A program made the translations under genes and the position numbers. Positions 13,280-57,167 of a DNA stretch of 64,000 nucleotides are shown piece by piece; position 1 is the first letter of the stretch; each line of letters begins with the position of its first letter. The stretch is from Trypanosoma brucei (Eukaryota), in NCBI GenBank assembly GCA_000002445.1, contig CM000207.1, positions 2,720,001 through 2,784,000 of the forward strand, in the 5' to 3' direction. The notes beneath the pieces were generated by a model, which was not told the origin of the DNA, made no database searches, and saw only the letters and a list, made by a program, of their open reading frames with translations.

Positions 13280-13735
13280 ATGCTGCCGTTCAAATAAGGG
13301 TTAGGGTTTCACTAAAAAGAGAGCTGCTGTGCCACAAAAAAAAAGTGAATCAAAAAATGGGTCGATATTGAGATGGAAATTAGAGCTGCAGATGTAAACG
13401 TAAACAAAAATGTCTGCTTCATCAATAAGGGTTAGGGCCACATCAAAAAAAGAACCAAAATCGTGACGTATCATTGGTAGTATAAAAAAACCAAGAAAAA
13501 AAATCATAACCCTAACCCTAACCCTAACTATCCCCCCTCCCCATTTCCCCGGCTGCACAAAAAAAACTCCAAAAAAAAAGGAAAGAGAAAAAAATTTTTA
13601 GTTGTCAGAAAAACAAAAAAAATTTACAGAATCAGAAGTTTTTTTACAACCAACAAACAAAATCTCGGCTGGATTTACGTGTTAAAATATATCAGAAATT
13701 TTAACCAAAGTTTTAGCAAGGAAGAAAAAGAGGGG
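13280..13735. repeat. internal degenerate telomere-like (TTAGGG/CCCTAA) A-rich tract
   Basis: ataagggttagggtttcac; ataagggttagggccac; aaccctaaccctaaccctaac (13508..13528), embedded in poly(A)-rich sequence. Homologous to the tracts at 34100..34990 and 57170..57720. Confidence 0.6.
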
Positions 13736-13738
13736 AAA

Positions 13739-15070
13739 TTAAAAAAGCAAAAATGCAAGCAAAAGAGAAACCTTCTTAATCACAAATGAATTGCTCCCTG
13801 TGGTGTTTGTGGTTGTTTTTCCATCTTCTTTTGTTACATCTGCTTTTTGTGCTTTCTCTGTGATTTTGCACTTTTCTTTTGTTTTATTCCATTCGCAACC
13901 CTTAGTGGTGCCGCATTCAGCTTGGCCCTTGCCTTCGCATTTGGCCGCCTCCGCTTTGGTAACTTGACAACCTTCTTTGTCGTCCTGCGCTGCTGCGAGT
14001 TGACATGCTGTTTCGTTCAGAGCGATGCGAACAAGTGTTGCTGCTGCTACTGCTTGTTCTGCTTTATTAGCTGCTAAGTTGGCCTGCTTGAATTTTTTGA
14101 TTGTTTCGTGTATGCTCTTGAGCTTGTTGGCTTTGACAGTTATCTCTTTTTCGGGGTACTTATCCACCACAGTTTTCGCTGGAATTTTGAGGTCTTGCCA
14201 TGTTGACTGATCTGTGCCTAAGAGAAGCAACAGTTTGTCCGCTTGTTCTGCTGACTTAAGTTGGTCGACGATCTCTGCCAGGTGCTTTGAGCATTCTTGG
14301 TATGTTGAATCGTCGGCTGTTGGCGCCGTTTTCGTCTGCCAGTTTGTTTGGGTCGGAGCACTGCCCGTTGATGTCGTGAACAATTCGCCGCCCCAGTTGA
14401 CTGCTTGAACTATGTTCTGGCCGTTAATGTAGCCGCCATCTGTTGAGTCGTGCATGGTGAGTCCTCAGTCTGCTTCGCTGCCGTCGGCAGCTAGTTCGGC
14501 GCCGGCGTCTTTTAGGGCTGCGTATTTGCCGGCCACGTTAGGCTCCTCCGAGCTGCTGGATTTTAGTAGCGGCGGGCTACGTCCGGTAGCATCCGCGATG
14601 CAATCAAGTTCATTTGCCTTTGCTTCGTTTGTCGTCCCCTTGATGCAGTAGTTTGATCCTGCTGTTGCTGCCTGGAAAAAGACACTAACAAATTCGTGGA
14701 TTTTGCCTCCGTAGAAAGCGCAGCGCCTTGCTGTTAGTATGGCTCTTTCCGCTCCGTTTTGTATTTTTTGGGCTGTTTCGACTACTAGCTTACTGGCTGG
14801 CAGTAACAGTGTTGACATTTCCTCGTACACCGCTCCGTCAGTTGGTAGAACTGCTGTAAGCAGAATCTGTTGTAGTTCTTGCAGCTCCATTGCTTCTTGT
14901 CCAAGCTTTTGTAGACGGCCGGCGACGTATGCCGGGACCTTTGTCATTTCAAGTGATAAATGGCAAACTTTTTGCATTGCTGCCACTTTTAAGGGCTTTT
15001 TGTGTGCTGACTCTCCTAGCTGGGCATTGGATATCGCTATTGCTGCTACCACCGCTGCTAGTCTCCACAT
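13739..15070 (-). pseudogene. VSG: VSG with a single in-frame TGA (at 14465..14467); otherwise full length, about 440 aa
   Basis: ORFs 14465..15184(-) and 13739..14455(-) are in the same frame, separated only by tga. Signal peptide MWRLAAVVAAIAISNAQ, A-type N-domain (AGSNYCIKG), C-terminal domain and GPI signal ...NSFVIKKVSLLLAFLLF. Confidence 0.8.
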
Positions 15071-15974
15071 CCTTTCAGTCGGCTTAAAATCTATGAAGCA
15101 ATATGTTCGCACGTGCGGTTCTTGCCTTTCGGAGTATCGGAAGCTGTGATGAATGTGGTTCAGAGATAGCAGCGCTTGCTTCAAGTTTTTTGGGAACGCA
15201 GCTGTTGGAGGGAATGTGTAACCACTAGGGAAAACTAGCTTGGGTTAGCGCCTTTTTTTAGTTTTTGTTAAAATTGCGGGCCCAGGCTCCCGGTGCTGAC
15301 GTTACAAACATCATAAACTCTAGAGTTGCCTATGATATTTTTGATTATCTGCATTATAGGCTGCAATATATTTTGCTACTGCGCAGTGGCAGACTGACAA
15401 TACCACGCCGCTGCTGCTGGTTTATGGTGTTCTGCCGTCTGCTGAAATTAGCTTCTACAAACACTTCACACTCTTTGAATTTTCAGTTGCTTGCCTGTGC
15501 AGATAGTAATCAATATTCGTTATCAAATTACGAATTACACTCGTTGGCTGCCATTTCTACAGCCACATCATCCCATTGCTGTGTAAAATATAAGTCACCG
15601 TTTGTCTTTCCTGTATTAGTTTACCCCGTAGTTACCTGCTGTGAATTTTTTTGGTTCATTCTGTATTTTCTATACTTCCACTTTGTCTTCTATTGCTTTT
15701 TCTGTGGATAAAGTAGCGCTTCCACATCCCTTGTACGCTAGACTTTGCTTCTCTCTCTAATATTCACTTCATCATATCATTATATACAATGATTCCCATA
15801 GTCATGATTTGTTCACAACTGCGAATATTGCATAAATCAATGTCTTTGTATTTCTTAGCTACTCTTGATAAAATTATTTGTGTTCTCTATGCCTTACTCT
15901 CTCTCTTACTTGAATTGCATCATTCAAATTATTTTAAGTGCTTTTGTTTTGTCAGTGTCTTTTGTCTTAACAAC

Positions 15975-19424: not shown

Positions 19425-19530
19425 CAGTCATTATTATCATTATCATTGTTATTATTATCATTACTATTAATATTACTACTTCTTTTATTATAATATTTGG
19501 ATATGCACACTCACAACACTCTCACCGTTT
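19425..19530 (-). repeat. 70-bp repeat, oriented for minus-strand cassettes
   Basis: cattatcattgttattattatcattactattaatattactacttcttttattataatatttggatatgcacactcacaacactc. Confidence 0.75.
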
Positions 19531-19546
19531 TATACTAAAGTAGAAT

Positions 19547-20400
19547 ATGAAATATTATATTTATACACTTATACTGTTATATTTAGTATTTTCAAGCTCA
19601 GTACCTATTCAAGAAGAAACAACGGCAAATATGGCAGAGAAGGGCCTTAAGAAGCCAAGAATATTTGTGGTTGTAGTTCAAACTCATGCAACTCAAGGAT
19701 GGTGTAGGCTCATATTGAGTGCCAAACTAAACAATGTTGCAATTATTATAATTGCAATGGGTGGTCTGTATAGTCATGTTAAAAGGCCTAGATGGGTTAT
19801 GGAATTTTAGAAAAACAGAATGCATGTAATAAGGATATTGTAATAACTGTTTGATGGGTCTGATGTTATTGTTACTGACGGACAAAAGTGTGAAGATGCT
19901 GTGGAGTATTTTAGTCATGACAACATCAGAGTGTTATGCTCCTCAGTTGATTTTGCTCATGAACTCAGATCACAAGGAGCATGTGCAGAGATGTTATTGG
20001 TATTTCAATGTTGTAAACAGGAAAGAGGAGGATAAAAAGTTTCCTCATTTACTAAAATCACCTCCTAGTGGAAACCCCTATCTTAGTGGTGAAAATATAA
20101 TAGCAAGAGTCTGGGCATTTAAGAAATTTGAATGTGCATTTGGAGAGTTACTGAAAGAAAGTGATGAATGATTGCCAGAGAAGAGTATTTATGCTACACT
20201 GCTAATTGGTAGTGTTACTTAAAAGGAAGCTGTTGGACAGAGATTTGTTTTGAAGCGAGGAATGATTGGTCTGGATTATGAAGAGAGATTATTTTCTTTT
20301 CCGCATAGTGATAAAATTGGAAAGGCTGTATTTATTTATTTCACAGGACAGCGAATGGCATGAGAGGAGAAGGAAAAATTGATTGCGATGAATTTAAGTT
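19547..20400 (+). pseudogene. GT31-like family pseudogene, copy B (plus strand)
   Basis: ORF 19547..19810(+) MKYYIYTLILLYLVFSS (N-terminal TM-like) ...PRIFVVVVQTHATQGWCRLILSAKLNNV...MGGLYSHVKRPRWVMEF. ORF 19851..20171(+) ...MTTSECYAPQLILLMNSDHKEHVQRC...ENIIARVWAFKKFECAFGELL. Continued in a third frame: EAVGQRFVLKRGMIGLDYEERLFSFP. Confidence 0.5.
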
Positions 20401-26289: not shown

Positions 26290-27360
26290 TTGTTTATCTT
26301 TTATTTCTATGGTAATTATTTTATATGTGTACTATACAGTTTGTTTAGTGAGGGTGAATCCATTTCACTGGAGATTGTTGAAGATGAGTATATGAGATTT
26401 GTTTCGCAGGATGTTATGAGTATTTGGAAAACTGAAGATTATTTTGTTGTATCTGGAATATCTTCCATAGATAATGATGAAAGATTCAGAAGAAGGAATC
26501 TACAGAGGGAAACTTGTTAGAGTTACCATGAATTGGCACGTAAGTCAAATAATTTTAGTGGGAAGTTGCTTATAGTATATGCTCATTCCCCTCATACAAA
26601 TAATAATTGCGAGCTCAGAGAAATTGTTGAAGGAGATGCAGAGTTATACCAGGATATTATAATTTTACCTGTTTGTGATGTGAATCCAACAGCAAGTAAA
26701 AAAGTTGGAGGGTTGAGGAATTGGGGCTGGGAATAAGATCTCACGATGAGTAGAAAAACATATTTGTGATTCAAATTTGCAGTTTATACATTCAAGTCAG
26801 CTAATCCCTATATAATGAAAGCAGATGATGATATATTTATGAGGGTGCCAATGTATTTGCAATACCTTGAAATATTGCCACAAGAGAAATTGAATATGGG
26901 GAGAGCATGGGGTGAACTTGACGAGTATTGGAAAGCTGACGTGTTATGTCGTTGGGTATGCGAACACAATTTCGAGAGATGTTGTAAAAGAAATAGTTGG
27001 CTATTCGGGAATTTCCAAACTATTATCCAACAAAGTGAGCTTTCGAAATTTCGAAAAATATATTGAATATGCTGCTTTGAACGAAGATATTATGGTTGGT
27101 AAGGTGATAAGGCACAAAATAAAAATTGAAGGTCTATTGACTGTGAATATACAAGATTGTAGCTATGTTATGCACTCAGAGTCACACCCAGAAGCTTTTA
27201 ATTACGGCAACAATAGTGATGCATTATTTAAAAGAGAGTGATTACACCTTTCTGACAACAGTTGACGTGCTAAACAGTAAGATGCAACAACCTGTGTACC
27301 TCCAGAATGAAGTTTACCGTAAGTGTTTTTTTGACCATGCTAAACAACAACGAACAGGTT
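26290..27360 (+). pseudogene. GT31-family beta-1,3-glycosyltransferase pseudogene (canonical DDD motif), fragmented across 3 frames
   Basis: KLLIVYAHSPHTNNNCELREIVEG (motif 1). ELYQDIIILPVCDVNPTASKKVGGLRNWGW plus YIMKADDDIFMRVPMYLQYL (DxD region, compare B3GALT YVMKTDSDIFVN). CYVVGYANTISRDVVKEIVGYS (GYxYxxSxDLV). NEDIMVGKVI (EDVYVG-like). Confidence 0.6.
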
Positions 27361-27511
27361 AAACATCACAATATCATCAAATGAAGTCACCCTTACGTTG
27401 CATATTAACAGCGATAAAAAATTAAACTCTTCACATATGATGTCAATGTTTCAAAACAAACCTCTTCTCAACAAACGCTAACGATATACAGGAACCAAGG
27501 AGGCACACACT

Positions 27512-28268
27512 ATGTTTCAAACCACATTAGTAACAGCAATAACAGTAGTCCTTTTTGCGGATAAATGTGCACCGACAGCAGGACACAATATCAAAGAATT
27601 CGCGCTAATGTGTCAACTATTTACCACGTGCGAACAGGGGACTTCAACCACTGGAAACGAGGCTGAACCAACACTAGAATCTGAAACAAAAAACGTTAGT
27701 CGTCAATAACATGTCGGCAGCAGATGAAGAATTCTTCGGAAGTAACTTCGACGACGTCCAAGACCATAAAAAGGACAAGAACTACGCAAAACACAAAAAC
27801 ACTTGGGCACAAACTAAAAAAAAGGATTTAGGCACAAAAAAGATAGGAAATATACCGGAAAAACTTACACGTATGACCGCCGGTACACTTCGGTTCGGTA
27901 TACAACAACAAGCACTGGAAGCGATACCTAACCTCGAAGCAGAAAAAGCGGCGTTGCCCAAGGACAAGACAACGATAACGATAAATTATGACCTAAAGGA
28001 GGTTCTGTACGGCGAAGGAAACACAGAAGCAAAGGGTACCTGGCAGTCAACGTTCGGCAGCGGCGGCAACGCAGCATGCGGCAATGACGGTAGCGCAGAC
28101 AACAAGGTCGGCACATCTCTAGCCAACGGCCTGGCCTGCCGTTGCGGCGACAACTCGGACGACACGGCTGCCGCAGGTTGTATAAGCAACAGGAGCTCAA
28201 CCGGAAGCAAGTTCGCCAGCGAAGCCTGTGGCCCAGCACCCAAAGCGACAATAGTGGCGAAATACTAA
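27512..28268 (+). pseudogene. VSG: VSG 5' fragment (signal peptide plus part of N-domain, frameshifted)
   Basis: ORF 27512..27709 MFQTTLVTAITVVLFADKCAPTAGHNIKEFALMCQLF. ORF 27711..28268, in the next frame, has ...LKEVLYGEGNTEAKGTW...LACRCGDNSDDTAAAGC. It ends about 95 bp before the ingi 5' end. Confidence 0.7.
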
Positions 28269-28363
28269 AAAAAACAGCACTACTGGAAGCACTCCTCGTG
28301 ACTTTTAAGTCATTATTAGGCAAACATGCCGTACACACGCCATCGGCGCAGTACAACTACGGC

Positions 28364-28442
28364 CCCTGGCGATGCCGGCCACCTCAACGTGGTGCCAGGG
28401 TCCAGTACCCCGTATCATCGGGGGAAGCCAAGAGCCAGCAGA
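28364..28442 (+). promoter_or_regulatory. conserved about 77-nt 5' signature of ingi/L1Tc-type elements (reported as an internal promoter, Pr77)
   Basis: The sequence matches, as far as I recall it, the conserved first about 79 nt shared by ingi, RIME, L1Tc and SIDER elements. Confidence 0.5.
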
Positions 28443-28724
28443 GTTCCTTTCATGGGAAACACTGATGTGCTCCGGCTACGGCATCATACAGCACAGGGAT
28501 CAGCAGCGTCTTGCTGGGACACCGTTCTTCATTTGTCGGTCCCTGGGCACGTGCCAGCGTGCCATCAGCAGTATCATCCGCACTAAGATGCTGCTGTTCG
28601 GTGACATGGAAGAGAATCCCGGCCCGTCGTTGCGCGGGATGCAGGGAACTGCGCCGGGCTATCTCAAGGAAAGAGATTAGCACTCCAAAAAACCCTTGTT
28701 GATGAGCGGATCGCCTTTTTTCTG

Positions 28725-31700
28725 TTGAGCGAGACAAGGATGACGCTTGAAGAGGCGGCTTGCTTTAGCGTTGCTGGCTACCAACATCACGGAATAGCTC
28801 GTAACTGCAAAGGAGGTGGTGTATCAATACTAGTGAGGGAGGACCTACCAGTTGAGATCGGTATGGCCGTTGTTGGTCGCATTGAACAAGTGCATGCAAC
28901 AATTCACCTTGCACGTGGAAAGGCGCTGACTGTCACGTCGGCATACGTCCCACCAAAACACACCTTCACGGCAACTGACCTAGATACGCTTCTGACAACT
29001 GACGGTTACCAGCTCATCGGTGCAGACGCTAACGCACACGCGTTGGCATGGGATCGCACGAGCCCACCAAATACCAAGGGTGAAACCCTCACACAGTGGT
29101 GCATTGACAACCAGTTTCTGGTCTGCAACACTGGTCAGTGCACCAGGTACGCGCGCCACCACGGGGAGTCCACCCTTGATGTGACACTGTCAAGGAATTG
29201 CACAGTGTACATGTGGACATCGCTGTATTCTCCCGATAGCGATCACCATAACATATTTTTCGACTTTATCGTTGGAGATGACACAGATGCACTGAGTTGC
29301 CCGCGGCTTCGAAAGCCCATGTACGCATGGCTAAAAGCTAACTGGAGGAATTTCCGTCTCAAGGTTGACGAGCTCTGCAGGAAAATTGGTAGAGAGAAGA
29401 ACGTCAATACCCTGGAACAGAAATTGAGCTCCGCCATCCGCATTGCGACGAAGATGTTCGTCCCCCGTAGCTGCAGAGCAACGCCACCACATTGGACACC
29501 AACGCTCACTAAACTCGATGAAGAGATCGCTGGATGCGGACCCTCCCACCGAAGGGAAATGTTGGTAGCCACGCGTAAGCAGATCCTGGACCGTACCACA
29601 AAGAAGAGATGGAGAACGCTATGCTCCAGACTTGCGGTGTCAGACCGCTGCAGTTGGCACATTGTCAAGAAGGTATATGCGCCACGACCACTAACCACAC
29701 TGGCTGTACTTGTTGATAACGCGGCCATCACGGACTACCATCAAGCTGAGAGGTTCAGTAAACTGTACTCGTCCCGTGCAAGAACGCACCCCGACTCACA
29801 CCCACCGGCACCAATAAAGACGATAGCGAGTGAGTTCAGTCCCATCACGATGGCTGAACTATGGAGATCGATCAAACTGCTTCCGACCGGATCCGCAGCA
29901 GGACCTGATTGCTTATACAACGAGGCAATACAACATTTCGGTAGAACAGCGCTGAATGTTGTTCTGAGGCTATTCAATGAGAGCCTACGAACGGGAGTCG
30001 TGCTGCCTGCATGGAAGATTGGTGTTATCATCCCCATCCTGAAGGCCGGAAAAAAGGCGGAGGACCTCGATTCTTACAGGCCTGTGACGCTCACAAGCTG
30101 TCTCTGCAAAGACATGGAGCGCATAATTGCCGCGAGGCTTAGAGACACTGTTGAGTCCCAGCTGACGCCGCAGCAATCAGGCTTTCGCCCCGGATGCTCA
30201 ACGCTCGAACAACCGCTGCACGTCCGCGCTGCCCTCTGCCGCCCCACGCACCAATATCGTACAGGTGCTGTATTCGTTGACTACGAGAAGGCATTCGATA
30301 CAGTAGACCACGACAAAATTGCGAGGGAAATGCACAGAATGAAGGTATCACCCTACATTGTGAAGTGGTGCGTATCATTTCTGAGTAACCGAACTGGAAG
30401 AGTGAGATTCAAGGAGAGGCTTTCCAGAAGCAGAACATTTGAGCGAGGAGTGCCACAAGGAACTGTCCTTGGCCCAATCATGTTCATTATTGTCATGAAC
30501 TCGTTGAGCCAGCGCCTTGCAGAAGTGCCGTTGCTGCAGCACGGATTCTTTGCAGACGACCTAACGCTACTTGCGAGACACACAGAGAGGGATGTCATCA
30601 ACCACACACTGCAATGCGGCCTAAACGTGGTGTTACAGTGGTCACAAGAGTACTTCATGTCTGTCAATATAGCGAAAACAAAGTTCACACTCTTCGGGTG
30701 TATAGAGCGCCACCCCCTTACATTGCAACTGGACGGCGAAAGAATAGGAGCTGACAGGACACCGAAGCTTCTCGGAGTAACATTCCAGTGTCTGCAGGGG
30801 ATGGCAACACATGCAGCCGAAACGAGACGCAAGATGGACTTCCGACTACTGCAGATAGCATCCATCTCAGCTTCTACATGGGGGCCAAGACGACAAGTAC
30901 TGAGAGCTTTTTATCTAGCACTCGTACAGGCACACACCATGTATGGCATTGAGGTATGGTACTGGGACGCTTCGGAACGAAGTCGCGACCTCCTTGCAGC
31001 AGCACAACACAAAGCCAGTCGCATCATAGCTGGCATACCGCATGGGACGCGCAAAGAGAACTCTCTGCTGGAAGCAAACCTCCTGCCACTCAAGACGGCC
31101 ACTCTTGTGCGCAGCATGAAATTCATACTGATGTGTGAGTCACGAGGCGGATGTCTGCGCCGCAGTGCTGAGGAAGTACACCACAGCAAACATCCAGTCA
31201 GAGTCTTACATTCCCGCATCATGCGGTCCTACCCCCACCTCCGCATTGAGCCACGCGAGCACCCACTGGAGACATCGACACTCCGCCACAGCTGCCGACC
31301 GCTATTTCACACGCAGATAAAGCCTGTGTGCGCTGATGACCCTGACGATGTCAAAAGGGAGGCTTCCGAAAAGTGGATTGAACGGCATTTTGCACGGAGG
31401 GGGAAGGAGCCACCGCGACGAGAGCACTACGAATTGTGGACTGATGGATCCGTGTCCCTCGGTGAGAAGTCCGGAGCAGTTGCTCTGCTCTATAGAAACA
31501 ACACGCTGATTTGTGCACCCAAAACTGGAGCAGGGGAACTCTCATGTAGTTACAGAGCGGAATGCGTAGCATTAGAGATAGGACTGCAACGGCTGCTGAA
31601 ATGGCTCCCGGCTTACAGAAGCACACCGAGCAGGTTGTCCATCTTCTCTGACTCGCTGTCAATGTTAACAGCACTGCAGACAGGTCCCCTAGCCGTAACG

Positions 31701-32576
31701 GACCCAATTCTGAGACGACTATGGAGGCTTCTGCTTCAAGTTCAGAGAAGGAAGGTGCGTATCCAACTGCAATTTGTGTTTGGCCATTGTGGCGTGAAAC
31801 GGAATGAGGTTTGTGATGAAATGGCCAAAAAGGCCGCTGATTTACCACAGTTGCGAGATACATGGATCCCCGACATCATTGCTTATGCGAAGCGAGTGCT
31901 TAGGTCGGAAGAAGTCCATGAGAACACTCATAGGTTTGGTATCACGGGCAACCACTTTCCAACAAAACATAAGGAAGAACTGACGAGGGAAGAAGAAACG
32001 GCACTGGCACGCTTTCGGGTTGGGTCTTCAAGACACTATGGATGGATGTTGCGAAAGATCAACCCGAGTGTGCCTCCACAGTGCCGATGGTGCAACCCAC
32101 AACATGCAGCGATAGGACCAACAATACAAACAGCCCCACTTGTTGCGACACGCACTCTTCAGAGAACCTCCGAACCGATCAAATGTACGGAATGTGATGC
32201 CACATACCAATGCCGCTCGAGTACTGTAACGCACATGGTAAACAAACATGGCTTTGTGCGAGCTGATGCCCTCCGGAGGATCAAATACGGCGATGCAACA
32301 CCCGCAGTGGATATCCCCCCGGAGCCCCCTCCAGTGGTGGCGATCGTTCCTCTACCATCGAGCACACGAGTCCCGATGAGACCGCAGGTGCTTCATTGTA
32401 CCATCTGTGCCTCCAAATTCGCAGTACCAGGCAGACTATTACACCACCTTAGAACAATACATGGCATAGGCAGCGGTAGTTGCCGCGTGAAAAGGGGGCG
32501 AGAGAACGAGGACTCATTGCAAGGAGATGGTAGAGCCCCAGCAGCGCCAGCCTCTCAGGATACACGGAAGCTGTAG
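28725..32576 (+). CDS. ingi polyprotein ORF (endonuclease C-terminal part, reverse transcriptase, RNase H, zinc fingers), 1283 aa, ending at an in-frame stop
   Basis: ORF-track protein with RT motifs (YRPVTLTSCLCKDMERIIAARL; FADDLTLLA), RNase H and CxxC...HxxxH fingers (CTECDATYQCRSSTVTHMVNKHG; CTICASKFAVPGRLLHHLRTIHG). Confidence 0.85.
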   Translation: MSETRMTLEEAACFSVAGYQHHGIARNCKGGGVSILVREDLPVEIGMAVVGRIEQVHATIHLARGKALTVTSAYVPPKHTFTATDLDTLLTTDGYQLIGADANAHALAWDRTSPPNTKGETLTQWCIDNQFLVCNTGQCTRYARHHGESTLDVTLSRNCTVYMWTSLYSPDSDHHNIFFDFIVGDDTDALSCPRLRKPMYAWLKANWRNFRLKVDELCRKIGREKNVNTLEQKLSSAIRIATKMFVPRSCRATPPHWTPTLTKLDEEIAGCGPSHRREMLVATRKQILDRTTKKRWRTLCSRLAVSDRCSWHIVKKVYAPRPLTTLAVLVDNAAITDYHQAERFSKLYSSRARTHPDSHPPAPIKTIASEFSPITMAELWRSIKLLPTGSAAGPDCLYNEAIQHFGRTALNVVLRLFNESLRTGVVLPAWKIGVIIPILKAGKKAEDLDSYRPVTLTSCLCKDMERIIAARLRDTVESQLTPQQSGFRPGCSTLEQPLHVRAALCRPTHQYRTGAVFVDYEKAFDTVDHDKIAREMHRMKVSPYIVKWCVSFLSNRTGRVRFKERLSRSRTFERGVPQGTVLGPIMFIIVMNSLSQRLAEVPLLQHGFFADDLTLLARHTERDVINHTLQCGLNVVLQWSQEYFMSVNIAKTKFTLFGCIERHPLTLQLDGERIGADRTPKLLGVTFQCLQGMATHAAETRRKMDFRLLQIASISASTWGPRRQVLRAFYLALVQAHTMYGIEVWYWDASERSRDLLAAAQHKASRIIAGIPHGTRKENSLLEANLLPLKTATLVRSMKFILMCESRGGCLRRSAEEVHHSKHPVRVLHSRIMRSYPHLRIEPREHPLETSTLRHSCRPLFHTQIKPVCADDPDDVKREASEKWIERHFARRGKEPPRREHYELWTDGSVSLGEKSGAVALLYRNNTLICAPKTGAGELSCSYRAECVALEIGLQRLLKWLPAYRSTPSRLSIFSDSLSMLTALQTGPLAVTDPILRRLWRLLLQVQRRKVRIQLQFVFGHCGVKRNEVCDEMAKKAADLPQLRDTWIPDIIAYAKRVLRSEEVHENTHRFGITGNHFPTKHKEELTREEETALARFRVGSSRHYGWMLRKINPSVPPQCRWCNPQHAAIGPTIQTAPLVATRTLQRTSEPIKCTECDATYQCRSSTVTHMVNKHGFVRADALRRIKYGDATPAVDIPPEPPPVVAIVPLPSSTRVPMRPQVLHCTICASKFAVPGRLLHHLRTIHGIGSGSCRVKRGRENEDSLQGDGRAPAAPASQDTRKL

Positions 32577-33689
32577 TTTCAATGTGACCTGTGTGAGGCG
32601 AGCTTCGGTACACGCTCTTCCCGGTCACTACACAAGAAATTCAAACATAAGAGCATAGTGACGGAGGACGGTACCGTGGTGGTGGTGCAATTCCCTCGTA
32701 AGCGTGCCCGTGAAGGAAACGTTGACGTCCCGGGGAAAGGCGAGGAGCAGTGTGGTGTGCGCCAGAAAGTGCTCAGTTGCAGGGACTCTCTCATCCGACA
32801 CTGTAAGGCTTTCCACTAATGTGAGGAAGTCGAGGTTAAATGCAGCAAAAGCACAAAATTATGTGCCACTGATTCCCCGCATACAAATGCATCCATGTTG
32901 GGTGTGACCGACATGCGGAAGGCAGTGTGCTAGCAAAACTGGCCTCACCCTACATCAAAAGAAGATGCACGGTATGAAGATAGAGCGCGCTGTTACCAGC
33001 CAACGCGGCGACTGCGAAGAAACGGCGCTGCACCTGATGAACTGTCCCGATTTGAAGGAGTTACGTGTTAGGTTTGCGGTGGAAGGTGTGTGTGTGTGTG
33101 CAGGATGTATTATTCTCCAAAAGACTGGCGCAGTTTCTCATTGCGGTTGAACGAAGCCGGCCGCATGTGAAGTCCTCCCCTAATGTAACAGTTATACAAC
33201 CCACTTTCCTTTCTGCAACTTTCCCCCTTATTGCCGAGTGTGGAGCTAGCAGGAAAAGCACCGGACGCAGGAATAGTCCAGACACCCTCAGAGACAGAGG
33301 GGGTATGCAATCAACAAGCAACAGAAACAGAAAAAGGGGAAGAGAATAATAAACGAATAACAAAAATCAAAACAAAAGGATTGCTAATTGACATCTTTTG
33401 GAGAGTCTGGGGTGGGAGGTTTCTCGCCCCATCTGCTGTATTCCGTTCAACTGCGGAGCTACAACAAAAGTTATAGAAAGTGTATTAGGCTGAATAAAAA
33501 AGGGAGACTCTGCCACAGTCGCCAGACCGATAGCATCTCAGGGCTCTACGGTGATGGCTGATGGCCGCGCCAGTGGGGGGAAACTCCCACGAAGGCACGA
33601 AGAAAATTCCAAAAAATATAATATGTTAAATTTTTCAAAATAGCACATTCTTGAAAATTTTCAAAAATTTTATTATGGCATTAAACTCA

Positions 33690-34080
33690 AAAAAGCGTCA
33701 GCCATCAGAGCAATTCGCGTTTTGACGAGGATACTGGAATCACGGAATTTTGTTTTAACTCTCTCCTGTCCATCAATGAAATCAATCCATCCGGAGACAG
33801 ATTTCTTTTCTCTTTCAGTTTCCCTGGAGCATTGACACATTTCTCCGGGTTATTATACACGCCACAATTGTGTCTCCTGGTGCTACAGCTTCATCTGTTC
33901 CTTGGTTTGTCGTCCTTTTCTCTCTCTTTGGGTTTGCACCAAGCTGCTGTACAGGTTGCGTTTGTTGTGTGCTGCTTGCTGTCTGCACGCATCGCTGAAG
34001 GTTGCTGCCTATTTGGCGATATGTGCTGATGCTGAATATCGTTCTCCTGCTCCTACTTGCCTCGCCTTAAAAGCACAGGG
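33690..34080 (-). pseudogene. VSG: VSG 3'-end fragment (C-terminal domain remnant plus GPI signal)
   Basis: Reverse complement encodes ...EKCVNAPGKLKEKRNLSPDG... and, in an adjacent frame, FRDSSILVKTRIALMADAFL (GPI-signal type). A VSG 3'-UTR-like motif at 33615..33640. Confidence 0.55.
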
Positions 34081-34099
34081 ACGACTGAAGTGAAACTAC

Positions 34100-34990
34100 G
34101 ACGGGGTACCGTAAAAAAACAGCCGCTATATCACTAGAAGAAAAACATGGATCATTAAAAAAATATTGGGTCGATGTGGGGATGAAAAAGAAGGTGGAAA
34201 AAATTTAAGGAAAGATGTATGCTGGATGAAAAACGGTTAGGGTTTGCAGAAAAAAGAGACGCTTAATAATTAAACAAAATTAAAAAATATATTTAAAAAA
34301 ACTAAAAATCAAAAAAATCAAAAAAATGAAAATTTAGAAAAAATTAAAGAGGCAAATTTTTTTAAAACGCTTCTGAAGTACAAAAAATAAAAGCCGCCGC
34401 ACGGCTTGTGAGAATAAGGGTTAAGGTCCCATAACAAAATAGCCGCTGGACGGCTGAAAAAATAAAAACAAAAGCTAAACCCCAAAACGACTCAGAAAAT
34501 TAAAAAATTAGCGTGGAGGAAAATTAACCCTAACCCGAAACACCTCGGCATAAAAAGGAAGGGAGGTCCAAAAAAAACGATATCGGATGGAAAAGGAAAG
34601 TAAAAAATATCAAAGGTCAAAAAAATTTTTAAATTAAAATTCAAAAATTCACGAAATTAAAAAAATGCTGAAAAAAAATTTAAGCATAAAAAAATCAAAA
34701 TTACAATTAAAAAGTTGTTAAAATAGAAAAATTCAAAAAATCTAAAGGTCTAAAAATCTAAAAACTTTGAAAAAACCCTAAAAAATACTAACCCTAAAAT
34801 GTCAAAAAAATTCAAAAAAGGGAGAAAAAATGGAAAAAAATATAGGCGCCAGAAAAAAATCACAGAATCAGAATATTTTACAAAAACACACTATTTTCAG
34901 GTAAATTACCTGTTAAAATATATCAAATAGCAAAAATTTCTTTTAAAAGGGGAAATTTGTTTTAGAAAAACAAGGCCACAAAAGCAAAAA
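34100..34990. repeat. internal degenerate telomere-like A-rich tract
   Basis: aacggttagggtttgc; ataagggttaaggtccc; aaccctaacccgaaac; actaaccctaaaatg, inside poly(A)-rich DNA. The segments tgggtcgatgtggggatgaaaaag and cagaatcagaatattttacaaaaacac are homologous to the 13.3 to 13.7 kb and 57.2 to 57.7 kb tracts. Confidence 0.55.
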
Positions 34991-35007
34991 CACTGAGAGC
35001 GAATTGT

Positions 35008-36598
35008 TTGTTTACCAAAAAGCTTCCATTTCGGCACATTTCTTTTTCTAGATCAGGCTCATTATCTTTACCCTTCCTCCATGCGCAATTTTGCTTGTCG
35101 CCTGTTTTGCCATTTTTACAAGCGGCTTTATCACTTCCGTGTCGTGCACACCCATTTGAAGCTGCTCCTCCTGTAGCTCCATCTTTTTATGCTTTAGCTG
35201 CTTGTTGTTCTACTGCTGCCGTATTCAATTTGCAGTGTTTTCCATCTTTCGCGTCACCGCCCTCCCATTTGCATTTTCCATTGTTTTTGGAGTCAGCTGC
35301 TACCGTTATGGCTTCGCACTCTTTGGTCAGGTCGTCCGTCTCACGTGGCGCGGTTTGTTCTGCTTTTGTAGCATGGTTTTTGACCTACGTGTCCCATATT
35401 ATGTCCTTTAGCGTCTCATTTAGGTTGTCAATTTGCTGATTTATATCCTTGATGCTTTGCGCTGCAGCTATAATGTGTTCCTGCTGCGTTAGCGCTTCTT
35501 CGAGACTTACTAACCAGGGTACCGTTATTTTTTCGCCAGAAAAATGTTCGCCTTTATAGTGAACGCATTTGCCGCCGTTGGTGTCCGTTTTACCTAGGCA
35601 ACCGTCGGCAGCCGTGCCCGCTGTTATGCCTAATAAATGCATTGTGGCCTCGTTGGTATCGCTTTTTTTTTGCTAGGCTGAGTTTTGAAGTTTGCCACCG
35701 CTGCGTGCAGCGCTGCGGCTGTTAGGCTCTGTCCCTTTGGCAATTTTTGGCATTCTTTTTTGAAGACTGCCCATATCTTTTTGTCTTCCTTGGCGGCTGG
35801 CCAGTCGACGGTTGCCAGGTTGTGTCCGTCTTCTGTGGCCCCACACCCCGGGAAGCACGCTTGGCCAGCGTCGTTGTCAGCGGCTTTAAAAGCGCACAAG
35901 CAATGCAGGTCCCATCTGAGACTCCGGCCGGCCAGAGAAGTGCCTAGGCTGGCGTGGTTGCCGCATCTGTCCGCCAGGCCCGCGCCCCCTGACGCTGTCG
36001 TCTCCATTGTTTCCGTTTGGTCTTTGCCGTAAAGCGCATCTTGCTTTGCTTTTTTTACTGCTGCCGGGGTTAGCTTGTCTTTCTCCAATTTATATTTCTT
36101 GTAAAGCTTGAAAGCCTGCCGAGCCATTGATTCTAGCCGCTTTTTGGCTCTGCTGGTTAGCTTGGCTTGTCGCCACTTTTCGTATTCTGCCTTAGTTTTT
36201 TGTTCCACAAGTTTTTTTAGCCCTAGTTGCCAAAAGTCCCCGTGTTCTTTCCATTTTTCTAACTCGGCGCCGCCTTTTGGCGCTACATCTTTAACTTTGA
36301 GTTGCTCAATCGCATAACATGCCTCCAAAACGTTAGTGAAGACTGCGGAGCTACTTGTTAGATTTATTGCTGCTACCACGGCAACTGCGGCTCCTGGGTT
36401 CTGATCTCATGGTGGTACAATGGTCTTCGTCAGCGCCAAATTTACTAAGTCACAAAGAGCGCCGAACTCCTGTCTTAGTGTGCCTTTTCCTGTGTCAGCA
36501 GCGCTTGGCTGCATATAAAAAAGAACCATTAGTACAGAAACGGCTGCAAGTCGCTGTTTCAGTGTCATTTTCTGGCTGATCTGTTCCTTTAACGCCAA
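35008..36598 (-). pseudogene. VSG: VSG pseudogene (frameshifted into at least 3 frames)
   Basis: ORF 36407..36598(-) MTLKQRLAAVSVLMVLFYMQPSAADTGKGTLRQEFGALCDLVNLA. ORF 35630..36379(-) N-domain (HCLCAFKAADNDAGQAC). ORF 35385..35642(-). C-terminus and GPI signal at about 35008..35100. Confidence 0.8.
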
Positions 36599-37597: not shown

Positions 37598-38400
37598 TTA
37601 TGTAAGGGTTTTCACAATTAATTTCGCTTTCTCTTTCCATGCAATTGGCTGTACAGGAAAATGGATGAATGGAACCTTTCCAACTTCACTATTAGTCAGA
37701 ATCAAAAAGTATCTCTCCTCATAATCTAATCCAATCATTCCTCTCTTCAAAACAAATCTCTCTCCAACAGCTTCTTCCTGAATGGCACTCCATATTAGCA
37801 GAGGCTTTGAAATACTTTGATCCGACCACCACTCCTCATTTTTTTTACAATAACTCTTGAAATGCATATTCAAACATTTTAACTGCCCATACTCTTGCTA
37901 TTAAAGGTCAACCACTAATATAAGGTTTTCTACTAGGAGGAGATTTCAGTAAATGAGGTAATTTATTATCCTCCCCTTTTCTGTAACCGACATGAAAAAA
38001 CCAAAAACATCTCTGCACATGCTCCTTGTGATCTGAATTCATAACCAAATCCAACTGAGGCGCATAACACTCTGATGTTGTCATGAATATAATAGGGGAA
38101 ATATGCTTCTCTTTTACTATATCTTCTCCACTAAACTTCTCTTCATTTTCAGCAGTATTTTGTATAAAATATTCCACACCATTCTCATACTTATTTCCAT
38201 CACTAACTATAACATCAGATCCGTCTAAATGGATTACAATATCCTCATCACTTGCATTATGTTTTTTCAAAAATTCCATAACTCATCTAGGTCTCTTAAC
38301 ATGGCTATACAGACCTCCTATCGTAATTACAATAATTTCAACATTTCTTAATTAGCCACTCAATATGAGTCAACACCATCCTTGAGTTCCATGAGTTTGA
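37598..38400 (-). pseudogene. GT31-like family pseudogene, copy C (best-preserved copy)
   Basis: ORFs 37908..38279(-) and 37598..37873(-): MEFLKKHNASDEDIVIHLDGSDVIVS...IIFMTTSECYAPQLDLVMNSDHKEHVQRCFWFFHVGYRKGEDNKLPHLLKSPPSRKPYISG / ...AIQEEAVGERFVLKRGMIGLDYEERYF... Confidence 0.5.
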
Positions 38401-39354
38401 ACGACAACGACAAACACTCTTACTTTGCTAGAATTATTTTGTGTTATATTTGTTGTTGTGTTTTATTGAAAATCTATTTCGCTTAAACAAAGTGAATGTT
38501 ATAACAACAATAGATCCCATAAGATAATAAACTTCATCTCCGTAACTCACCTACAAATTTGATTGTTTTATAAACAAAGCTTAGAAACATTAAGGAAACA
38601 AGTCAAATGCGCCACTAAGGTCTTTAGTTAAGGAAAAGATTTCATATAGATAATGCCTTGATGTTTATATATTGGAACTGTGAAGTGTGTATACTTAGTG
38701 TAAATAGCTTATCTTTGGGCACACAAATCTGATACTTTCTTAATAAAATAACTTTTGCTATACCTATAATCACACACTAACTGTATTTCACTGTAGTTTG
38801 CATTTACATATTTTGCGTATGCATTTTTATTACAATTGCAGTAGCGATTCGTATTGTTTCTCTCAAATATACTACGAAGTTTGCTACCCTTACGTGATAA
38901 ATACTATAACCACACTGTTTTATTATGAGAATTCAATTAGTATGGCTTCATAAATTAACAATTCTGTTGTTTATACCTCTATCCCTGAAATAGCATGTAT
39001 TTGCGATTTTCAAACATAGGGATAAATTTCATTAAGTATTATTTTCTTTCTTAGCATATTACAGCGCACCCTATTGTTTCACTCTATATTTATGTTTTTT
39101 TATCTTTTTCTTTTCTGTCTCTATTGATACTGATAACGTAGCTATCAAATTTGGTTTGCATTCTCTACCCTGTTTCTACCTAATTTTCACCTCCATCATC
39201 TCCCTGTGTATAATGTTTCCCTTTGTCATGTTTGTGCCTAAAACTACGCATATTCTATGTCATTCTCTCTCCCCTTGCCTCTCATTCACTCTCGTTGGAC
39301 ACTTAATATTGTTTTAAAAGATTCTAATTTGGCATTATATTTAGTCTTCACCGA

Positions 39355-39731: not shown

Positions 39732-41174
39732 CTAAAATTCTACAAAACCCACAAAAGAAGAAACAATCAGGGCGATTTTTTTGTTTACTAGAATGGAGGA
39801 ATCTTTGCATTCTGTTCCTTCCCATTTGCAACCATCTTTGCACACGGCTTCACTTTTATTATCTTTGCATTTTTCTGTTGTTGTTTCAGGTCCTCCAGTT
39901 TGTGCTTGTGTTACAGAAACACTCTTCTTTTTTGCTTTTTCTGTATCTAATTTGCACTTTTTATTTTCATCAGTTTCTGTTTTGTTAAAACTGCATGCAG
40001 CTGTTGCATTGCAGTCTGCTTCGATTTTAATTTCGTTGCAGCCGCCTTCTGTTGTGATTGGGTTACATTCTGTTGGTGGTGGTGGTGGAGTTATTTCCTG
40101 TGTTAGTTGCGCTCTTTTTGTGGTCTCAGTGCTTTTTCCTGATGCCGTAACTGCGTCCCCTCTAAGCTTTTTGATTGCCTTGTGAGCTGCTTTCAGCGTC
40201 GGTACGGATATTTCTACAGTTTGTTCCGTGTCGCCAAGTCCGAGTTTGGCTTCCGTTGTAGTTATAGCTTTAAAAGTCGGGTTGGGGTCGGCGCTTCCGA
40301 GTGTTGTTAATTGACCGAGTGCCGCCGTCGCTGCGTCTAAGCTTGCGGTACATGTTGGCTTTAGAGCCTTGACTTTGGTTATCGGGTTATTTGTTTCGAG
40401 TGGATGGCCGGTGGACCAGCTAGTCGCCGCTGGTACTGAACCTGTCAGTTTTAGCAAGCCGGCCATAAGATAGATCGTTGGTGCGGTGCCCCCCCCGGCG
40501 CCCATTACTCCGTTTGTGCCGTCAGTTGCTGAGAGTCGGCAGCTTTTGGTGGCGTCGACGCCTTTGCTGCCATCGCCTCCTGTGCCGAAGTTTGTTAGAG
40601 CGTGCTGGGCGCCGGTTAAGGTTGCGACCGCCTCCTTCTTGAAGGTTCGTCTCACGGCGTCTCTGTCCTTGCAGTCGGGGATATCGTTGATGGCTGCTCT
40701 GCCGCCTGCTCCGTCGTTGCTCATGCAATAGTTCGAGCCGCCGTTGTTCGCGGCAAAAAACAGGTGCGTGGTTTCTAGTATCGCACCGGCAACAAAGGCT
40801 CCTTCATTTCCGGCGTCTATCGCTGCTGCCAAGTGTGTTCGCACAGCTGCCTTTGCTTCGTCTACTGTGGTCCTAGTATGCATCAGAAGGTTTATATTGT
40901 CGTCGTTCCTCGCCAGTGTCCCTGATTTCATTAACTTTTTTATGTCGTGGAGTATCGTTTCAACTTCAAAAAGGTGGCTTGTTAGTGTTTTGGTTATTGT
41001 TTCGGCGTAACTACCGTATTTCATCAGCTCGTTGGCAATCTTGCAGCTGTCATCAAATCCCTTGGCTTTTAAGGCTTCTTGTGTGCCCATGGTTGGTGCT
41101 GACGTCGAAATTAGACTCAGGATTGCCAGCAACATCTGGTACAGGACAGGTCTACGTTTGGATGTTTGAGTCAT
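39732..41174 (-). CDS. VSG: VSG, apparently intact (480 aa, A-type N-domain, two Cys-rich C-terminal subdomains, GPI signal)
   Basis: Single uninterrupted ORF MTQTSKRRPVLYQMLLAILSLISTSAPTMG (signal peptide) ... GGSNYCMSNDG ... ECNPITTEGGCNEIKIEADCNATAACSF ... CKDNKSEAVCKDGCKWEGTECKDSSILVNKKIALIVSSFVGFVEF. 3'-UTR element variant at about 39640..39660. 70-bp repeat 1.5 kb upstream. Confidence 0.75.
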   Translation of the reverse strand: MTQTSKRRPVLYQMLLAILSLISTSAPTMGTQEALKAKGFDDSCKIANELMKYGSYAETITKTLTSHLFEVETILHDIKKLMKSGTLARNDDNINLLMHTRTTVDEAKAAVRTHLAAAIDAGNEGAFVAGAILETTHLFFAANNGGSNYCMSNDGAGGRAAINDIPDCKDRDAVRRTFKKEAVATLTGAQHALTNFGTGGDGSKGVDATKSCRLSATDGTNGVMGAGGGTAPTIYLMAGLLKLTGSVPAATSWSTGHPLETNNPITKVKALKPTCTASLDAATAALGQLTTLGSADPNPTFKAITTTEAKLGLGDTEQTVEISVPTLKAAHKAIKKLRGDAVTASGKSTETTKRAQLTQEITPPPPPTECNPITTEGGCNEIKIEADCNATAACSFNKTETDENKKCKLDTEKAKKKSVSVTQAQTGGPETTTEKCKDNKSEAVCKDGCKWEGTECKDSSILVNKKIALIVSSFVGFVEF

Positions 41175-54774: not shown

Positions 54775-55400
54775 TCATTCGTCATAAACCGCCTTGTTTC
54801 CAACTCTTTCTACTAAGTAAAATTTTTTACAATCAATTTTTCTTTCTCCCATGCAAGTGGCTGAAAAACAAAAATAAATAAATGCAGTCTTTCCAAACTC
54901 TCCACTAGTTGGAATAGAAAATAATGTCTCCTCATAATTCCATCCAATTATTCCTCTTCTCAAAGAAAATTTCTGTACAACAGCTTCTTTTTGAGTTGCA
55001 CTTCACATTGGTAAAAGCGATGAAAACTTTGCTCTAATTTCCATTATTCTCTTCCTCTCAAAAATTCTCCAAATACATATTCAAATATCTTAAATTCCCA
55101 AACTCTGGCTATTAAGCCACCACTAAGATAAGATTTTTCACTAGGAGGTGATTTCAGCAACTGAGGTAATTTTTTATCCTCTTCTTTTTCTTAACCTACA
55201 TTAAAAAACCACTTACATATCTCCATGCTTTTTTACAATATCCTCATCACTTGCATTATGTTTTTATAAAAATTCTATAACATCTAGGTTTTCTGACATG
55301 ACTATACAAACCTCCAATCTAAATTGTAATAATTTCAACATGGCTCCGTTTGGCACTCAGTATGAGTCTACACCATCCTTGAGTTACATAAGTTTGAACG
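54775..55400 (-). pseudogene. GT31-like family pseudogene, copy D (internally deleted, degenerate)
   Basis: ORF 54775..54963(-) MRRGIIGWNYEETLFSIPTSGEFGKTAFIYF corresponds to KRGMIGLDYEE.LFSIPNSG of copy A. Sequence at 55330..55440 matches the 5' flank of copy C (38320..38440). Confidence 0.4.
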
Positions 55401-56404
55401 ACAACGACAAACACTCTTACTTTGCTAGAATCATTTTGTGTTATATTAGTAATGTTATTTATTTTTTCAAAATATCAAGTGATTTTGTGCTTTAGTACTC
55501 TAAATGTAATATCCATGGTAGTGGTAAAATTCTCAAGACACCAAACGTCATTCTAAAATATACTTTTTAAATCTTAAAGTGTTAAAAGAAGAATTAGAAA
55601 CTTTAGGAAAAGAAGTTAGTTGCACCACTAAGGTGAACAGTTAAGGAAACCATGTTTACATATGTAAATAATGCGTTAACATTGTTCTGATATAATTGTT
55701 AAAGGGTATATCCTCACCATCTGTAGCTTATCCTTGAGCACGGATCTCTGGGCTTTGTTTTTTTAAAGTTAGTTTCTATCCGTAGTTGGTTCTGCGCTCC
55801 ACATGCATGCTACTGTTACTTTTTCACATTTCCCCATTCTGCGTAGTTATGGGAACTACAGTAGTTAGTTGTACTGATTATTTCAGATACGCTAGGAGTC
55901 TTACCAGTTGCCTTTGGTAACTATCTCGGTAGCCGCTTTTAGCACGAGACTCTCCTCACCATAGCTTTATTACATACATATTCTCTTGTGCAATCGTTAT
56001 CTATGCGATGGCATCTATCCACTTATGTGTATAAGGTGCTGCACAATCTTTTTCTAGTTTTTCTCTAGAGTACTGCTCTGCACCAAGATGTTTCATTCCG
56101 CATTCCGCATTCCGCATTTCCATTTCCATTTCTTCTTTTTCATCCTCTATTGCTGCTTCTGCAGATAAGAGAGCGAGCTTATCTGAGCTATACATTGAAC
56201 TCTGTGCCTTTCTTAATGTCCTTTCCATTAACATCACATGTGTGATAATACACATCGCCGCGTTTATGCCGCAACTGCATGTATTTAGCCACTATTTTCC
56301 TTAGTCTCTTACCCTCCCTCTCACTCATTCACTTATTTCCATTGCAGTCTTGTCATTTTCTTAAATGCTTTTATTTTCTCTTTTCGTTCGGTTTTCACCA
56401 TAAC

Positions 56405-56495: not shown

Positions 56496-56739
56496 ATTTT
56501 AAAAAATAAACTAAACTAAATTAGAATAACACACATTTTTTACACACTATTATCCTACTACTTTGCACCCATATGCCACGTTCAAACACATGTTACTAAA
56601 AGTCGCACATATCAATCATAAAGTTTTGAAATACATCAACGTTTAGAAAATATTAGCAAACTATTACAAAAGTAATTTTCTTAGAAAACAACATATTTAT
56701 AAATAAAAATACCTAAAATTTTACAAATCCACAAAAGCA

Positions 56740-57146: not shown

Positions 57147-57167
57147 TATATATATATATATATATTT
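57147..57167. repeat. (TA)10 microsatellite
   Basis: tatatatatatatatatatat. Confidence 0.9.

Follow-up and report, generated by a model that had tools for sequence, protein, structure and literature searches.

A dead copy of the ingi retrotransposon stands between two facing gene blocks in a subtelomeric VSG array of Trypanosoma brucei brucei TREU927, and because it is an ingi without the duplicated target site of a simple insertion, the locus is the trace of an old rearrangement or else of a join made in the assembly. We put at about one half the probability that it is a recombination scar, and not a working device, which originated in an exchange between two ingi copies. Rearrangement of this kind is already known in the T. 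brucei genome.

An ingi copy at a convergent strand switch of the VSG array

The window, by which we mean the whole 64-kb stretch of DNA that was analysed, holds the ingi exactly where the VSG array switches strands convergently: a plus-strand block of 9 kb with three VSGs meets a long minus-strand VSG array tail-to-tail at the element. The other end of the plus-strand block, at about 19.53 kb, is a 70-bp repeat and not an ingi, and a four-way alignment placed positions 19531-19780 within a plus-oriented inter-VSG unit. The inverted segment is 14 kb long and has a 70-bp repeat at one border and the ingi at the other. The features around the element are listed in Table 1.

Table 1. Features of the ingi locus and its two flanks (positions in the window)
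Feature	Position	Strand	Evidence
5' flank VSG pseudogene, b-type N-terminal domain, ATG at 27512	27510..28363	+	Pfam VSG_B, E=2.6e-13
GCCATCGG, presumed ingi endonuclease recognition motif	28339..28346	+	GG at -19/-18 from ingi
TACAACTACGGC, expected 5' copy of the target-site duplication	28352..28363	+	12 nt immediately before ingi
ingi non-LTR retrotransposon body, full length	28364..33610	+	BLAST and MAFFT against other copies, Pfam
ingi A6 tail	33611..33616	+	alignment with comparator copies
3'UTR of orphan VSG fragment, truncated by ingi tail	33617..33669	-	homology to orphan UTRs of other modules
Orphan VSG C-terminal-domain fragment, decayed GPI signal (DSSILVKTRIALMADAFLSLMP)	33670..33849	-	translation, Pfam Trypan_glycop_C
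Possible further decayed VSG coding remnant	33850..34080	-	coding-like composition, multiple frame breaks
A-rich decayed telomere-like tract	34081..34910	-	hexamer count, colinearity with other modules
3'UTR of VSG pseudogene and stop codon	34911..34964	-	perfect 16-mer core GATATATTTTAACA at 34911-34924
VSG pseudogene, b-type N-terminal and C-terminal domain, GPI signal GSFLVNKQFALSVFAFVALFF	34965..36570	-	Pfam

Boundaries and coding capacity of the ingi copy

The ends of the ingi were placed by alignment to eight other copies, including L002, L003 (twice), L004, L005, L007 and L008; the comparators L002-L008 had been obtained via protein-cluster members. L001 from T. b. equiperdum, the first comparator, was dropped, as its palindromic, N-containing assembly offers no usable 3' end. 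With its tail, the element measures 5253 bp (28364-33616); over its whole length it matches L002, L003a and L005 with 95-96% identity, and its identity to the other copies spans 93-97.6%. The 5' end is precise and begins with CCCTGGCG. At the 3' side, homology to the T. b. equiperdum and T. b. gambiense copies stops at cacgaaggcacgaagaaaattcc (33610), the canonical ingi 3' end being GAAGAAAATTCC followed by an A tail. Fine mapping against other copies thus puts the 3' end at 33610 plus A6, in agreement with the initial annotation.

The domains of an AP-type endonuclease, a reverse transcriptase and an RNase H are present in the element (Pfam Exo_endo_phos_2, E=4.7e-13; RVT_1, 7.6e-44; RNase_H, 2.5e-9) together with a 3' poly(A). 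The missing duplication described below bears on the integrity of the insertion and leaves its identity as an ingi untouched. The reading frame of the element is interrupted: 1 nt is deleted near 28644, a stop lies in frame at 32574-32576, 1 nt is inserted near 32900 and 4 nt are inserted at 33086-33089. This is therefore a dead copy. In comparison with Tbingi (ingi4 subclade), the likeness lies in the 5' end, which falls within the conserved 79-nt signature region, in the three domains, in the canonical 3' end with its A tail and probably also in the upstream GG motif at the usual offset. The locus copy differs, however, in being broken in at least four places, where the intact reference copy (P0050) encodes 1656 aa, and in lacking the 12-bp target-site duplication of the family.

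The target-site duplication is missing and the two flanks are unrelated

One publication (PMC3820030) reports a conserved motif upstream of Tbingi and gives a 12-bp target-site duplication as the rule for its insertions. At the 5' junction studied here, GCCATCGG is followed by 5 nt, then by the 12-nt target site and then by the ingi. The identical octamer stands at the same offset upstream of L003a, and the motifs found at this offset in other copies are GCCATAGG (L005), GTGGTCGG (L001a), ATGCAGG (L002) and TGTGGGG (L008). The GG motif of this locus agrees with the pattern in six comparator flanks, which is a small set. With this motif at the usual offset, the 5' flank therefore looks like a genuine insertion site. 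The interrupted gene is a VSG pseudogene that matches positions 57-239 of the 352 positions of the VSG_B profile and holds a stop and a frameshift; the ingi truncates it mid-domain, and its C-terminal half and 3'UTR are absent.

The expected partner of TACAACTACGGC is missing as well: within the 64-kb window, a search allowing up to 3 mismatches returned only the sequence itself. When TACAACTACGGC, before the ingi, was compared with TATAATATGTTA, after the tail, the best 12-mer match was 6/12, which is the mode of 2000 shuffled controls and thus at chance level. Among the comparators, the duplication matches at 12/12 in L008, at 11/12 with one indel in L003a and at 9/12 in L002, and L005 and L006 show no clear one. 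The initial annotation had proposed that the module to the right of the element, composed of a VSG, a telomere-like tract and a VSG fragment, may have served an ingi-associated rearrangement as its target or partner. This proposal gains support, since the poly(A), though short, is present whereas a target-site duplication is not.

Could this have been an ordinary insertion whose duplication was later lost by mutation? On one hand, the ingi is old enough to have collected at least four inactivating lesions, and duplications are poor in some comparators too (L005 and L006). On the other hand, a divergence of about 5% predicts about 11 matches in a 12-mer, where 6 were observed, and the flanks are not merely mutated but are different genes on opposite strands: by Pfam, the left one is a plus-strand VSG N-terminal domain and the right one belongs to a minus-strand VSG 3'UTR. 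Judged by their sequences, the two flanks cannot derive from one interrupted locus, and the loss of a duplication by mutation is effectively refuted.

An orphan VSG fragment adjoins the ingi tail

On the right, an orphan VSG 3' fragment had been described as directly following the ingi 3' end, with nothing but VSG 3'-UTR-like sequence in between. Such a fragment is present, with the GPI signal given for it and within a few bases of where it had been placed, and the 53 nt at 33617-33669 alone separate the A tail from its tandem stop codons (33670-33675). Its proposed extent (33690..34080) holds in part. The 58-aa segment at 33676-33849, whose minus-strand translation terminates in GWIDFIDGQERVKTKFRDSSILVKTRIALMADAFLSLMP and two stops, matches positions 63-104 of the 104 positions of Trypan_glycop_C (E=6e-7; 30.2 bits, the Pfam cut-off being 21.4 bits), but at 33850-34080 the frames are broken and gave no Pfam match at E<=0.1. 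The UTR region of the fragment (33741-33627) is homologous to 56783-56673 (E=2e-7), which is orphan-fragment 3'UTR of another module, includes a degenerate 16-mer-like element at 33624-33644 and adjoins the ingi tail with GAAAAATTTAACATATTATA. In the two other modules of this architecture, about 140-235 nt and then 70-bp repeats are found at the place that the ingi occupies here.

One conceivable way to bring the tail and this UTR together would be a break within or beside the A tail or target site of the ingi, fused by microhomology-mediated joining to a break in the A/T-rich orphan 3'UTR with no second ingi involved. The A6 tail could have been trimmed, being shorter than the 7-12 A of seven of the eight comparators (in L005 the tail is a degenerate AAGAAGAA), and both sides of the junction (AAAAAA followed by TATAATATG) are A/T-rich, which is favourable to microhomology. 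However, the breakpoint would have to fall, give or take a few bases, on the element's natural end, and L008 has a tail of A7 alongside a perfect target-site duplication, so A6 is near the normal range. We thus regard such joining as unlikely.

The sequence after the tail begins with T, as in 6/8 comparator copies. This resemblance to ordinary ingi junctions would suit a rearrangement coupled to the insertion itself, in which the priming of reverse transcription and the joining of the 5' end took place at distant or different sites, so that the duplication was never made; variants of this idea involve a large target-site deletion or the bridging of two broken ends. In other non-LTR elements, such as mammalian L1, full-length copies without duplications arise in this way. 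Nevertheless, an endonuclease-type 5' motif at the exact two-nick offset is unexpected for an arbitrary distant join, and a deletion alone leaves the opposite orientation of the flanks unexplained, which makes this origin very doubtful. The post-tail T would likewise fit a second ingi whose tail/target junction is genuine.

Exchange between two ingi copies as a possible origin

The 3' flank was probably exchanged later than the insertion, and the most likely route is recombination between two ingi copies. In a first step, endonuclease-primed reverse transcription would have placed a full-length ingi at 28352-28363, inside a plus-strand VSG (pseudo)gene. The right-hand side of that ingi would later have been swapped by homologous recombination with a second ingi, whose own insertion would have hit the minus-strand module, in the short spacer that comes after its orphan VSG 3' fragment. 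The product would be one hybrid ingi with both ends intact, its left target site coming from one insertion and its right one from the other. The element at the locus is indeed complete from end to end, while its two target-site halves differ and its flanks are non-contiguous. The exact termini and the kept A tail favour an exchange, because a random break would rarely hit the end of an element, and an exchange taking place inside two elements leaves both ends preserved. In addition, its motif makes the 5' junction look like a true insertion site that lacks its partner sequence. The complementary site of the second ingi is predicted by this model to consist of a GG-containing motif, 5 nt, TATAATATGTTA and then CCCTGGCGATGCC.

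According to the T. b. gambiense genome paper, which speaks of it in general terms, ingi and RIME undergo recombination and give rise to rearrangements (PMC2854126). With such ectopic retroelement recombination our locus shares intact ends, mismatched target sites and unrelated flanks, and it sits at a change of gene orientation. It differs in two respects: the defining proof would be the reciprocal product, of which the 64-kb window shows no trace, and there is a 70-bp repeat, not an ingi, at the far border of the inverted block. The same window yielded no second ingi or RIME, no partner and no reciprocal half-site, and no chimera breakpoint in the ingi was seen by sliding-window or regional identity, which is a weak test with five comparators that are all from other subspecies. 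As the far end of the plus-strand block is at a 70-bp repeat, a simple ingi-by-ingi inversion inside the window is excluded, and it therefore takes an inter-locus exchange or no fewer than two events to explain the arrangement. Two further candidates were set aside. A simple inversion of 19.55-33.62 kb restores no duplication and has a 70-bp repeat as its left breakpoint. Insertion of the 14-kb segment into the module's own spacer, for which there is a weak 39-nt match (E=0.001), has the four-way alignment against it and was not adopted.

It needs to be considered that the exchange might have taken place in the assembly, two ingi loci of the TREU927 subtelomere being joined through the ingi itself as a 5.25-kb, about 95%-identical repeat. 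A collapsed repeat join in a Sanger assembly would leave the identical signature of exact ends, no duplication and unrelated flanks. Moreover, ingi is a high-copy element (one protein cluster alone has 60 members in related genomes), and T. b. equiperdum L001 shows how poorly ingi regions can assemble. The copies, however, are 3-6% different, which is enough for a finished Sanger assembly to tell them apart, and the identity pattern does not change abruptly along the ingi. The reference chromosomes were also finished from large-insert clones, and an assembly chimera is rather improbable on these grounds.

Antigenic variation draws on the silent VSG archive as its raw material, and the shuffling of the arrays is understood only in part. 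This locus provides a base-pair-resolved example from the reference genome of a dead ingi at the seam of oppositely oriented array segments, with the 5' target site of the element still readable, and lends itself as a test case to the question of how frequently recombination end-points are provided by ingi and how frequently by 70-bp repeats. It leaves current ideas unchanged, as the T. brucei genome is already known to have VSG pseudogenes, C-terminal fragments and rearrangement mediated by ingi/RIME.

Three VSG modules with telomere-like tracts

The initial annotation had taken the module next to the ingi for the second copy of its kind. The VSG/telomere-like/VSG-fragment architecture is real, but the window has three such modules and not two, at about 12.8-15.2, 33.6-36.6 and 56.7-59.3 kb. 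They are just 60-70% identical to one another and are therefore old paralogues, not recent copies. In the module at 34 kb, the VSG pseudogene matches VSG_B (E=3.9e-26) and Trypan_glycop_C (E=6.1e-25) and has three in-frame stops and one frameshift. The tract that follows it (34.1-34.9 kb) holds four exact TTAGGG/CCCTAA hexamers within about 0.8 kb. TTAGGG-type hexamers in the sense of the VSG lie at 34797-34776 and 34533-34528, CCCTAA-type motifs of opposite sense lie at 34426-34415 and 34242-34237, and short A-rich tandem repeats of 8-10 nt are also present. This tract is colinear with the one at 13.3-13.5 kb (E=7.5e-14). Over the window, TTAGGGTTAGGG has 12 matches at up to 2 mismatches, where 3.1 are expected, and these are clustered after the three VSGs. 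A perfect (TTAGGG)3 is found at 13510-13527 and two units at 57378-57389, the 34-kb module having decayed to single hexamers. TTAGGG units are thus above chance and in telomere orientation relative to the upstream VSG, as in an interstitial telomere relic.

In bloodstream expression sites, the distance from the VSG to the TTAGGG repeats is 200-1590 nt (PMC2567434). The modules resemble a telomeric VSG in that TTAGGG in VSG sense begins about 210 and 280 nt past the stop in the two better-preserved ones, with which the 34-kb module is colinear. They differ from it in that the repeats comprise 2-3 units or are decayed, are internal and not at a chromosome end, and have opposite-sense CCCTAACCCTTA motifs and then another VSG fragment behind them. 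Silent subtelomeric VSG arrays consist of cassettes, each with a 70-bp repeat, a VSG and a 3'UTR carrying the 16-mer, and they include VSG pseudogenes and C-terminal gene fragments. With such a cassette the 34-kb module shares a pseudogene in which VSG_B and C-terminal domains, a GPI signal and the perfect 16-mer are present, as well as an orphan C-terminal fragment with its own decayed UTR. The difference here is that a telomere-like tract and the orphan fragment come next instead of a 70-bp repeat, and that the ingi stands in place of the next 70-bp repeat. Our literature search for internal telomere-like tracts downstream of array VSGs found nothing specific. We tentatively suggest, while holding it to be unlikely, that the three colinear modules, each running from a VSG through a TTAGGG relic and opposite-sense CCCTAACCCTTA to an orphan fragment, could be fossils of former chromosome ends, or of telomeric VSGs pasted into a resident VSG. 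If so, part of the silent archive would have been built from telomeric genes, and the 14-kb inverted segment would show 70-bp repeats and ingi acting jointly as end-points of archive reshuffling.

An Rfam scan of 27-37 kb gave a single match, sub-threshold and chance-like. The intact neighbouring VSG at 39732-41174, for which no near-identical orthologue from another assembly was found among the indexed proteins, is 100% identical to a TREU927 protein.

The orphan VSG fragment directly follows the ingi 3′ end

The table gives the layout of the window, which is a silent VSG array. As ingi comparators we used, in place of a consensus, loci reached via protein matches and their cluster members (L001-L003 and L005-L008 from T. 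b. equiperdum, L004 from T. b. gambiense). One of them illustrates how untrustworthy ingi regions can be in assemblies: at 8118-20057 of L001 (CM010677.1), ingi pieces lie in palindromes with N runs and lack proper 3′ ends, which is probably an assembly artefact of that genome. The window sequence from 28364 (CCCTGGCGATGCC...) to 33616 aligns end to end with L002, L005 and the copy L003a at 95-96% identity. All copies share the body terminus ...CACGAAGGCACGAAGAAAATTCC, followed by an A tail that is mostly a plain A run (7-12 A in seven comparators, the degenerate AAGAAGAA in L005 and A6 in the window copy). The initial annotation had proposed fine-mapping of this end, and the alignment thus places it at 33610 plus A6. 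Pfam finds endonuclease, RT and RNase H domains in the element. It is dead: compared with an intact 1656-aa copy, it has lost 1 nt, carries two insertions and has an in-frame stop. A (GT)7.5 microsatellite in its 3′ region (33086-33100), 4 nt longer than in other copies, is one of the frame-breaking changes.

Only 33617-33669 separates the tail from the orphan fragment. This stretch is homologous to the 3′UTR found behind the orphan fragments of other modules, and holds a weak element resembling the conserved VSG 16-mer. The initial observation that the fragment follows the ingi directly, with just a 3′UTR-like motif between them, is therefore confirmed, to within a few bases. Translated on the minus strand, 33661-34101 ends in ...GWIDFIDGQERVKTKFRDSSILVKTRIALMADAFLSLMP followed by two stops, in exact agreement with the GPI-signal-like peptide quoted previously. 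As for the fragment proposed at 33690-34080, its C-terminal part stands, as 58 residues (33676-33849) align to the final 42 positions of the Pfam profile Trypan_glycop_C with a score that passes the curated cut-off (E=6e-7); from 33850 to 34080, minus-strand frames are broken and match no Pfam profile, so that it is uncertain how far the fragment extends on its 5′ side.

Coordinates of features in the window
Feature	Position	Strand	Basis or remark
VSG genes and pseudogenes	1-19 kb and 33.6-64 kb	-	
Block of three VSGs, 8.8 kb	19.5-28.4 kb	+	
Recurrent inter-VSG unit	19648-20388, 26520-27063	+	
Recurrent inter-VSG unit	4569-5310, 37612-38421, 54872-55418	-	75-86% identity to the 19.65-20.39 kb unit
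5′ flank, b-type VSG N-terminal domain	27510-28363	+	VSG_B E=2.6e-13
Ingi body	28364-33610	+	alignment to comparator copies
Ingi A tail (A6)	33611-33616	+	comparison with comparator tails
VSG pseudogene	34965-36570	-	VSG_B and C-terminal domains, normal GPI signal
Modules	12780-15184, 33617-36570, 56670-59349 (about 12.8-15.2, 33.6-36.6, 56.7-59.3 kb)		

The two ingi flanks do not derive from one target

Tbingi insertions carry a 12-bp duplication on their flanks and a conserved motif before them (PMC3820030). Such duplications directly follow the tail in L008 (TTTCACATATCT on both sides, 12/12; 6034-6045 and 11294-11305), in L003a (CTTCTCCTCACA vs TTCTCCTTCACA, ~11/12 with one indel; L003 5981-5992 and about 11245-11256) and in L002 (9/12). 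The window ingi is preceded by TACAACTACGGC, and its tail is followed by TATAATATGTTA; the best 12-mer match within 45 nt past the tail is 6/12, the mode of 2000 shuffles, and the 5′ flank 15-mer has no second match in the window with up to three mismatches. The initial annotation had suggested that the module was a target or partner of an ingi-associated rearrangement, a normal duplication and poly(A) being what would speak against it. The ingi has a poly(A), albeit a short one, but no duplication, and a rearrangement of this kind in which the module was one partner is thus supported, its precise mechanism being what we infer. The flanks themselves rule out that a duplication has simply decayed: a plus-strand VSG_B domain stops mid-domain at the ingi, on the other side lies a UTR that belongs to a VSG fragment on the minus strand, and these cannot be halves of one interrupted target.

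In the 5′ flank we found GCCATCGG, whose GG stands at -19/-18; 5 nt separate this octamer from the 12-nt site. An identical octamer precedes L003a at equal offset, where other copies have GCCATAGG (L005), GTGGTCGG (L001a), ATGCAGG (L002) and TGTGGGG (L008). The GG recurs in 6/6 usable 5′ flanks, an empirical target pattern which, judging from these six copies, may be that recognized by the endonuclease. As a recognition-type motif stands at the right offset, the 5′ junction appears to be a genuine insertion site, and the former post-tail sequence (TACAACTACGGC and the remainder of that VSG) would since have been replaced. A rearrangement coupled to the insertion itself fits poorly with this correct spacing.

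Exchange within the ingi is the most likely mechanism

Because the ingi is exact at both ends, the data are most likely explained by an exchange with a second ingi that took place within the element. The partner would have been an ingi inserted after the orphan fragment, and exchange internal to the two elements would leave a hybrid ingi with one target half per parent, at which two oppositely oriented array segments are joined. That ingi/RIME recombination causes rearrangements in T. brucei is acknowledged (PMC2854126), so this would be a known class of phenomenon, here in a well-studied reference genome. No second ingi/RIME was found as a partner in the 64-kb window, and identity profiles against five copies, an underpowered test, revealed no breakpoint. 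On one hand, the short A6 tail and the A/T-rich junction suggest break-joining at the tail; on the other hand, the break must then coincide with the element end. A chimeric assembly through the ingi repeat would look identical.

At the left boundary of the plus-strand block (~19.53 kb, within a divergent strand switch at 19440-19650), a 70-bp repeat in minus orientation (19440-19525) meets, head to head, inter-VSG unit sequence in plus orientation. With this repeat at its left edge and the ingi at its right edge, the block must have a history of more than one simple ingi × ingi inversion. In the inter-VSG unit copy at 26.5-27.1 kb, the sequence resembles a galactosyltransferase-like gene that has decayed to a pseudogene (Galactosyl_T of Pfam at E=4e-4, below cut-off).

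Three modules look like relics of telomeric VSG ends

The module had been described as a second copy, implying two; we found three. They are colinear over the VSG 3′UTR, the telomere-like tract, the orphan fragment and the UTR behind it, and their identity of only 60-70% makes them old paralogues. A VSG with a perfect 16-mer comes first, followed by VSG-sense TTAGGG repeats and opposite-sense conserved CCCTAACCCTTA motifs; an orphan C-terminal VSG fragment with a UTR of its own closes the series. In the two better-preserved modules (TTAGGG)2-3 in VSG sense starts ~210-280 nt past the stop codon, within the 200-1590 nt that separate expression-site VSGs from the telomere (PMC2567434), and 70-bp repeats of the next cassette begin 140-235 nt after the orphan UTR. 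At 34 kb the ingi tail sits, after 53 nt, where these repeats would be. The modules resemble relics of telomeric VSG ends that have become internal; we found no description of such an arrangement in the searchable literature.

Beside the orphan fragment, an A-rich tract in which telomere hexamers are scattered leads to the neighbouring VSG, a pseudogene by its three in-frame stops and one frameshift, to which the perfect 16-mer at 34911-34924 belongs. A sub-threshold Rfam hit to the c-di-GMP-I riboswitch (34940-35019, plus strand; 26.4 bits vs 35, E=0.078), which spans the 3′ end of this VSG in a eukaryotic genome, was dismissed as a chance match. Elsewhere in the array lies an intact VSG (39732-41174, minus strand); it shows 100% full-length identity to one that is annotated in Trypanosoma brucei brucei TREU927 as 'VSG, atypical'.
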